In this document: positions 20,756 through 20,786 of the stretch, in pieces
Layout of the letters: every line of letters starts with the position of its first letter
Numbering within the stretch: position 1 is the stretch's first letter
Assembly: GCA_947623825.1 (NCBI GenBank)
Contig: CANQHQ010000001.1
Span: 17,736 to 81,735, forward strand
Source: an uncultured Bacilli bacterium
GTDB taxonomy: Bacteria; Bacillota_I; Bacilli_A; RF39; UBA660
Direction of reading: 5' to 3'
DNA: 64,000 bases
Position numbers and translations under genes: made by a program
The notes under the pieces: model-generated
Database searches by the model: none
What the model saw: only the letters and a program-made list of their open reading frames with translations
What the model was told of the DNA's origin: nothing

Positions 20756-20786
20756 ATTATACCCCCCCCCCCATGTTATTTGACAA
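20756..20786 (-). promoter_or_regulatory. sigma-70-type promoter TTGTCA-N19-TATAAT whose spacer contains an 11-nt poly-G tract (plus strand 20762-20772 = C11)
   Basis: The minus strand reads TTGTCAaataacatGGGGGGGGGGGTATAATtgttatagaataGGGGtgcagtagagGTG. The -10 element is 20761-20756 and the -35 element is 20786-20781. The start codon is 20730. Confidence 0.6.

Follow-up and report, generated by a model that had tools for sequence, protein, structure and literature searches.

A G11 tract in the promoter spacer of a type IV pilin-like gene from an uncultured Bacilli bacterium: a candidate slipped-strand expression switch

The stretch of DNA analysed here (64,000 nucleotides, hereafter the window) carries on its minus strand a gene for a 607-aa type IV pilin-like protein, whose promoter region reads ...catcTTGTCAaataacatGGGGGGGGGGGTATAATtgttatagaataGGGGtgcagtagaGTGaaaagt... 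on that strand. A -35 hexamer TTGTCA (20786-20781, five of six positions matching TTGACA) is followed by a spacer of 19 nt (20780-20762) and by a -10 hexamer TATAAT (20761-20756) that is identical to the consensus, so that the pair has 11 of 12 consensus matches. The spacer consists of aataacat and a homopolymer of eleven G (20772-20762; C11 on the plus strand), which forms its 3' end and directly abuts the -10 hexamer. Judged by sequence alone, the tract stands between the two hexamers and its length sets their spacing, and at eleven G it exceeds the length at which G/C runs become hypermutable (about 8 or more). Direct reading found no palindrome beside it. Further downstream, a ribosome-binding site GGGG (20743-20740) lies 9 nt 5' of the GTG start codon (20730-20728) of the open reading frame 18907-20730, and the distance from the -10 hexamer to this GTG is 25 nt. 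The consensus promoter scan takes spacers of 16-18 nt only, and therefore the 19-nt promoter was not called by it.

A homopolymer census of the window returned this tract as the only G/C run of at least 6 in 64,000 bases, while base composition predicts 2.9 runs of at least 6 and 5.6e-4 runs of at least 11 in 64 kb. A preliminary description of this DNA had placed a run of 11 G inside the spacer of TTGTCA-19-TATAAT, with the GGGG site close downstream and, after it, the GTG codon at which the 607-aa prepilin-like protein begins, and had named the run the only long G/C homopolymer of the window. On re-reading, the coordinates were correct and the other two statements held. The G+C content, which had been put at about 30%, was computed as 33.8%.

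The gene product (18907..20730, minus strand) begins with VKSRRKKKEQG|FTLIELLAV, a class III (prepilin) signal peptide, and was assigned by PF07963 (5.4e-8), by TIGR02532 (above the cut-off), by profile comparison and by its structural model. In the profile comparison, the family matched solved type IV pilins over residues 1-69 with E values of 3.5e-9 to 1e-7. The AF2 model (mean pLDDT 81.4) shows a long alpha-1 helix at residues 14-67 and then beta strands at 89-160, which would form the pilin head, with pLDDT values mostly between 70 and 90. Model and profile together thus give the long N-terminal helix on a beta-sheet head that is characteristic of the pilin superfamily. About five Ig-like beta-sandwich domains follow in tandem up to approximately residue 540, and a Cys-rich C-terminal segment (542-588) lies outside the modelled part. 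As modelled, it combines helix, head and tandem Ig-like domains and is thus a type IV pilin of modular build. Foldseek matches were generic tandem Ig-like stalks, namely cell-adhesion molecules, RTX adhesin extender repeats, a grappling-hook protein and the Ig-like domains of PrgB, and the protein may plausibly be an adhesin. To judge from its family, the pilin would be surface-exposed. Its reading frame is intact through all 607 codons.

Directly downstream, a second gene (18380..18895, minus strand) encodes a 171-aa protein with an N-terminal transmembrane anchor. Because it starts 11 nt past the pilin stop codon and has its own AGGAG, it is probably co-transcribed with the pilin gene. A small membrane-anchored reading frame was found 3' of the pilin gene in every relative examined; among these small proteins no sequence similarity was detected, and they are alike in position and architecture only. 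No second prepilin gene was found in the window, and the Rfam search at the locus gave no RNA family. Likewise, a scan of 36 of the 47 window ORFs with 150 aa or more in these 64 kb of the genome, all neighbours of the pilin gene among them, found no prepilin peptidase and no pilus machinery (ATPase, platform protein). In the non-coding gap downstream of the operon, blastn and tblastn detected a 43-nt remnant of the pilin gene (18324..18366, minus strand). It is 86% identical to 19190-19232 within the pilin gene (blastn E 6e-4; 13 of 18 residues in tblastn), as seen in the pair NPVTCTVTSA against YPVTCTVTSA in translation. By its sequence, we read this stretch as what was left when the C-terminal region of the pilin was once duplicated or recombined.

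On the other side of the promoter lies a gene for a 289-aa protein (20857-21726), the stop codon of which is found at 20859-20857 on the minus strand. Past this gene, folding revealed an intrinsic-terminator-like hairpin (20810..20846, minus strand) in which positions 20846-20837 and 20823-20814 form an A/U-rich stem of 10 bp around a loop of 13 nt, with a T tail reaching to 20810. The U run comprises six U, the first two of which lie within the stem. For the 61-nt stretch with this hairpin, the folding energy is -14.6 kcal/mol (z = -3.06). Since its loop is longer than 8 nt, the hairpin escaped the consensus terminator scan. The preliminary description had seen here a strong terminator (20812-20844). 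The hairpin is indeed real but A/U-rich; its strength had been overrated, and it is plausible as a terminator of moderate strength. The reading frames flanking the pilin operon on the same strand, i.e. the 289-aa ORF, a 338-aa ORF (21750-22766) and a 334-aa ORF (16958-17962), are rich in Glu and Lys, and none of the three has a Pfam or NCBIfam match. The 289-aa protein (P0198/P0199) also occurs on other ENA contigs.

Orthologous promoters were compared. The pilin has relatives in MAGs from animal and human guts, which carry the labels uncultured Bacilli, Tenericutes or Mollicutes. Taken with the PolC, DnaE and PASTA kinase genes of the window, these relatives point to a low-GC gut Bacilli lineage as the host. 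The two closest orthologues are 76% and 81% identical at the protein level and reside in other genomic contexts. Their promoters read TTGAAA-aaagaaaaggaaaaagg-TATAAT (L001) and TTGTAA-aaaagaaaaatctagag-TACAAT (L002), each with a spacer of 17 nt. Both -10 hexamers align with TATAAT of the window and lie 26-27 nt from the start codon, as compared with 25 nt in the window, and TTGAAA and TTGTAA match TTGTCA by position. Because these promoters are homologous, the reading of TTGTCA/TATAAT as a functional pair with an ancestral spacing of 17 nt is supported. The preliminary description had assigned this promoter to the gene and had set the optimum of 17 nt two G below the present spacer, and both points agree with the orthologues. 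Thus, the pair is probably a real promoter that stands 2 nt over the optimal spacing.

In comparison to the orthologues, the window promoter has two extra nucleotides, both within the G run. A G run was present in neither the L001 nor the L002 promoter. It was also missing in more distant orthologues of approximately 40-55% identity (P0005, P0006, P0017), which directly follow sepF and divIVA with short intergenic gaps. Since closest and distant orthologues have no run, G11 is a lineage-specific gain, neither ancestral nor conserved in this gene. In L002, a one-base deletion relative to the window (gtggcagc to gtgcagc) divides the 81% identical orthologue (2801-4701) into an N_methyl ORF of 63 aa and an ORF of 566 aa. 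The coverage of the contig is only about 3x, so that the split may reflect either an error of assembly or a pseudogene.

The next comparison concerned G runs in related loci in general. Contigs were scanned for a prepilin-like N-terminus, which gave 80 loci. They were chosen by that feature alone and thus constitute an unbiased sample for a census of G runs, for which 70 low-GC loci from related MAGs were used (516 kb, 28.5% G+C). Seven runs of at least 8 G/C were observed where 0.37 were expected. The lengths of sense-strand runs showed a gap, with ten G6 and one G7 on one side and seven runs of G8-G11 on the other, and no C run was longer than 6 in the 70 loci. With respect to the gene downstream, all seven long runs read as G on the sense strand. 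Six directly abut a -10-like hexamer, which is TATGAT, TAAGAT, TATATT or TATTTT or, in the case of L033, what seems to be a T-to-G variant; the remaining run, that of L082, is set off from TATTTT by two bases. In four of the seven, a perfect TTGACA lies 7-9 nt upstream of the run, and in L009, L035 and L042 this perfect TTGACA is the sole -35 hexamer, so that the run is inside the spacer. Spacers in this class range from 15 to 19 nt, and the 17-nt optimum is always within 2 G.

Five of the seven runs precede prepilin genes. In the case of L009, three reading frames come after a G10 tract in a 19-nt spacer: a secreted one of 162 aa, a window-pilin homologue of 680 aa and a small membrane protein. 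Downstream of the same operon, a 108-aa ORF (6580-6906) repeats the N-terminal helix of the 680-aa pilin (IELLATIVVLAVISMITIG...) joined to unrelated sequence, and by this resemblance it is taken to be a truncated pilin copy. In the case of L033 (5782-7707), G11 follows a perfect TTGACA and precedes a 625-aa surface protein directly past three short pilin genes. Judged by eye, the many repeats of this protein (FDTSNVTNM...SLTSLDL) look leucine-rich or DUF285-like. Poly-G tracts are therefore not confined to pilin genes. Among 100 prepilin-like genes in the related loci, five have a tract, and the tract is therefore a minority strategy. A metagenome scan with the -35 and spacer shared by L009 and L033 gave only four unrelated chance matches, which were without G runs.

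More insight into tract length was gained from a pilin family of the human gut. Within one MAG, paralogous promoters can differ by one G and otherwise be almost the same, from the -35 region on into the coding sequence, as seen in SIG201 (G8 and G9) and in MGYG-HGUT-02248 (G9 and G10). The pilin of the MGYG-HGUT-02248 type has 404 relatives at E <= 1e-30. In most of them roughly the first two-thirds (about 65-70% of the query) aligns at approximately 90% identity, and the C-terminal third appears hypervariable. An orthologous locus with the order mgsA, pilin 1, pilin 2 was then compared across several human-gut assemblies. The reference MAG (L080) has G9 at pilin 1, and no second G run was seen in L080. 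The P0081 allele, present in three samples, has G8 at pilin 1 and G9 at pilin 2. The P0077 allele has G10 at both, and the P0076 allele, again in three samples, has G10 at pilin 1 and G9 at pilin 2. The flanks of the tract are identical across the alleles (gcaaac-Gn-tattttaaatacc). Two further family loci in other genomic contexts carry G10. In this comparison P0139, found on 13 contigs, and P0121, found on 25 (22 of them read), counted as one locus each, similar places having been merged.

These alleles are direct evidence that tracts in the relatives change length on the timescale of strain divergence. Samples that share one allele had the same consensus length (three at G8, three at G10), and therefore switching is not so fast as to differ in every assembly. 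Several other features of the human-gut loci were seen. The pilin genes are arranged in tandem, each with its own tract. In L080, L082 and L094-L102, the G tract is immediately adjoined by GTTTGCTATATGCAAAC, a conserved palindrome of 17 nt with the look of an operator, and some 30 nt downstream follows an extended -10-like element, TGnTATAAA. Among the contigs of the family, three short ones start 27-46 nt upstream of a tract. The window pilin itself is the single member of its 90% protein cluster, and look-ups of the exact 607-aa protein returned no record. A search of JGI metagenome contigs and IMG/VR with the exact tract flanks and a variable gap gave no match, nor did a scan of IMG/VR with the human-gut cassette.

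The interpretation that we favour, and hold to be probable, is that slipped-strand mispairing makes the G11 spacer tract of a sigma-A-type promoter mutable, which would give heritable and reversible states of the pilin operon. In this mechanism, replication would add or remove G and so alter the distance between the -35 and -10 hexamers. G9 would restore 17 nt and is predicted to be the strongest state, G10 would give 18 nt, and the assembled G11, with 19 nt, is predicted to be weak or OFF. A spacer of this length exceeds the usual range of 16-18 nt, and in its assembled form the promoter may have almost no activity. The preliminary description had implied a weak or OFF state for G11 as well, and its interpretation held in each part that lent itself to a test. 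Single cells would then differ heritably but reversibly in the amount of pilin made. The controlled unit would be the two-gene operon of the modular pilin and the small membrane-anchored protein. The upstream hairpin would limit read-through from the preceding gene, and expression would consequently hang on the tract promoter. Slippage at the window tract is supported by analogy; we infer the variation of this particular tract, the control of transcription by spacing and a selection for variable surface expression. A prepilin-type surface protein with tandem Ig-like domains is the usual cargo of a contingency locus. The literature searched reports no poly-G promoter switch on pilins for gut Bacilli or RF39-like lineages. 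Most likely, then, this is an ordinary slipped-strand expression switch in a lineage without an earlier report of one.

The interpretation of such a tract could also be one of decay. A recent and essentially neutral expansion of a purine-rich spacer might have weakened or killed the promoter of a gene that is poorly expressed or decaying. The L001 spacer aaagaaaaggaaaaagg is itself purine-rich, so that a few A-to-G changes could yield a G run, and the assembled 19-nt spacer is non-optimal. The frameshift in the 81% identical orthologue and the pilin-gene remnant near the operon fit such a history as well. However, the 607 codons are intact and their AF2 model is confident, and the window is otherwise without G/C runs. 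Similar tracts at the same promoter position in several species, with strain differences of a single G, would be unexpected of debris, and we regard neutral expansion as unlikely.

A further possibility is that transcription starts from another site. At 20801-20773 on the minus strand, the consensus promoter scan calls TTGACG-17-TAACAT, a promoter-like site that overlaps the main promoter and has a canonical spacer of 17 nt; its last base immediately precedes the first G of the run. If this site were used, the run would be the start site or initial transcribed region and would act through reiterative transcription or the 5' leader. RNA polymerase slips on G runs in this way at B. subtilis pyrG. 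Yet the site has 9 of 12 consensus matches with a weak -10 hexamer TAACAT, as against 11 of 12 for TTGTCA/TATAAT, and it is the latter pair that the orthologous promoters match in position. In L009, L035 and L042, where TTGACA is the only -35 hexamer, the run lies inside the spacer. Use of the upstream site is thus very unlikely.

The G run could, moreover, be a cis element of fixed length, such as a protein-binding site, a weak G-quadruplex or a rigid G:C block, that tunes expression without switching it. The operator-like palindrome GTTTGCTATATGCAAAC that the human-gut tracts abut would suit a binding site, and G bases immediately 5' of the -10 hexamer resemble in part an extended -10 element. 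Against this, length is not conserved, being 8-11 across the class and 8-10 at one orthologous locus, and the window tract has no adjoining palindrome, which makes a fixed element highly improbable. Poly-G artefacts are common in two-colour Illumina data, and the three short contigs of the related family that begin close to their tract might raise the same suspicion, but a sequencing or assembly artefact is scarcely credible for a run that is internal to a long contig (95.8 kb), is bordered on both sides by promoter sequence aligned with orthologues and has equivalents in MAGs of several independent studies and hosts.

Returning to the slipped-strand switch, its closest mechanistic analogue is the porA promoter of N. 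meningitidis. There, the number of G in a poly-G tract of the -35/-10 spacer sets the transcript level, since adding or losing one nucleotide alters the spacing, and the likeness extends to a tract of approximately 9-11 nt within the spacer of a surface-protein gene (PMC3899988). In contrast to porA, which encodes a porin of a Gram-negative pathogen, the cargo here is a pilin, and switching is predicted from the sequence. In the original porA work, G11 reportedly gives the optimal spacing of 17 bp, whereas in the window this spacing would call for G9, and G11 leads to 19 nt.

In phylogeny and organisation, the closest analogue is the vlp family of M. hyorhinis. This is a multigene family of variable surface proteins in which every gene has its own tract-bearing promoter, and indels in the poly-A tract of these promoters switch transcription ON or OFF (PMC10502178). 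The vlp host, with its low-GC reduced genome among Bacilli/Mollicutes, is the phylogenetically closest one. Like vlp, the human-gut relatives have a conserved cassette of promoter, tract and N-terminus before divergent C-terminal regions. The vlp tracts are poly-A and their products are lipoproteins, whereas the tract here is poly-G, the product is a type IV pilin and the gene is a single copy in this window.

Fimbrial promoters offer another comparison. A poly-C tract is involved at the fim promoters of B. pertussis. In H. influenzae, TA repeats lie between -35 and -10 of hifA/hifB, and the pili are phase-variable (PMC3899988). The likeness to hif and fim lies in repeats of fimbrial promoters that alter the spacing of promoter elements and in pili that vary in phase. 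Differences are that the hif repeat unit is TA and that fim requires the activator BvgA; besides, hif and fim fimbriae are of the chaperone-usher type and belong to Gram-negative hosts, while the window cargo is a type IV pilin.

With regard to the protein itself, S. sanguinis PilB and PilC combine a class III signal peptide and a pilin module with bulky, presumed adhesion domains. By description, the window protein resembles them in joining a pilin module to bulky extra domains; the S. sanguinis modules are vWA or lectin domains, compared with tandem Ig-like domains and a Cys-rich tail in the window. The comparison differs further in that no pilus machinery genes were found among the scanned window ORFs. 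To our knowledge, no phase-variable promoter has been described for S. sanguinis pilins.

A wider reading, which we put forward tentatively and at somewhat less than even chances, is that reduced-genome gut Bacilli share lineage-wide poly-G switches abutting the -10 hexamer, which would act independently on many pilin-like and other surface genes, the window gene being one independent recruit. The hosts of the genomes concerned (human, mouse, rabbit) were inferred from isolate names, and the MAGs are labelled ‘Bacilli’ or ‘Tenericutes’. If true, abundant but never cultured commensals would possess a Vlp-like system of combinatorial surface variation with pilins as its basis.

Promoter-homopolymer phase variation has mostly been described in cultured pathogens, i.e. 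Neisseria, Haemophilus, Bordetella and mycoplasmas. The mechanism is textbook knowledge and the interest resides in where it was found: at the level of sequence, genes for type IV pilin-like surface proteins of uncultured reduced-genome gut Bacilli have promoters with poly-G tracts, and tract length differs between strains of a prevalent human-gut relative. If confirmed, commensals would display stochastic surface variation with a bearing on immune and phage evasion and on attachment, and the consensus of a MAG would hide functionally different subpopulations at tract loci. A G run of at least 8 beside a hexamer starting with TAT would then serve as a simple metagenome marker for such loci. 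The recurrence of the motif and the strain polymorphism in the human-gut pilin family merit a systematic survey.

Some other features of the window were observed in passing. It encodes PolC, DnaE and a PASTA kinase; polC (22799-27226) and dnaE (28206-31160) lie side by side, with a 286-aa ORF without family match between them. The two strands differ strongly: the minus strand holds 42 of the 47 ORFs with 150 aa or more, and the plus strand contains 268 T runs of at least 6 and 61 A runs. Finally, the Rfam motif DUF3800-VII RNA was identified at 43538-43633 on the minus strand (68.2 bits, gathering score 36.2). It is located at the 3' end of a DUF3800-domain gene (42816-43547, plus strand), on the opposite strand, and its first 10 nt overlap the end of that reading frame.
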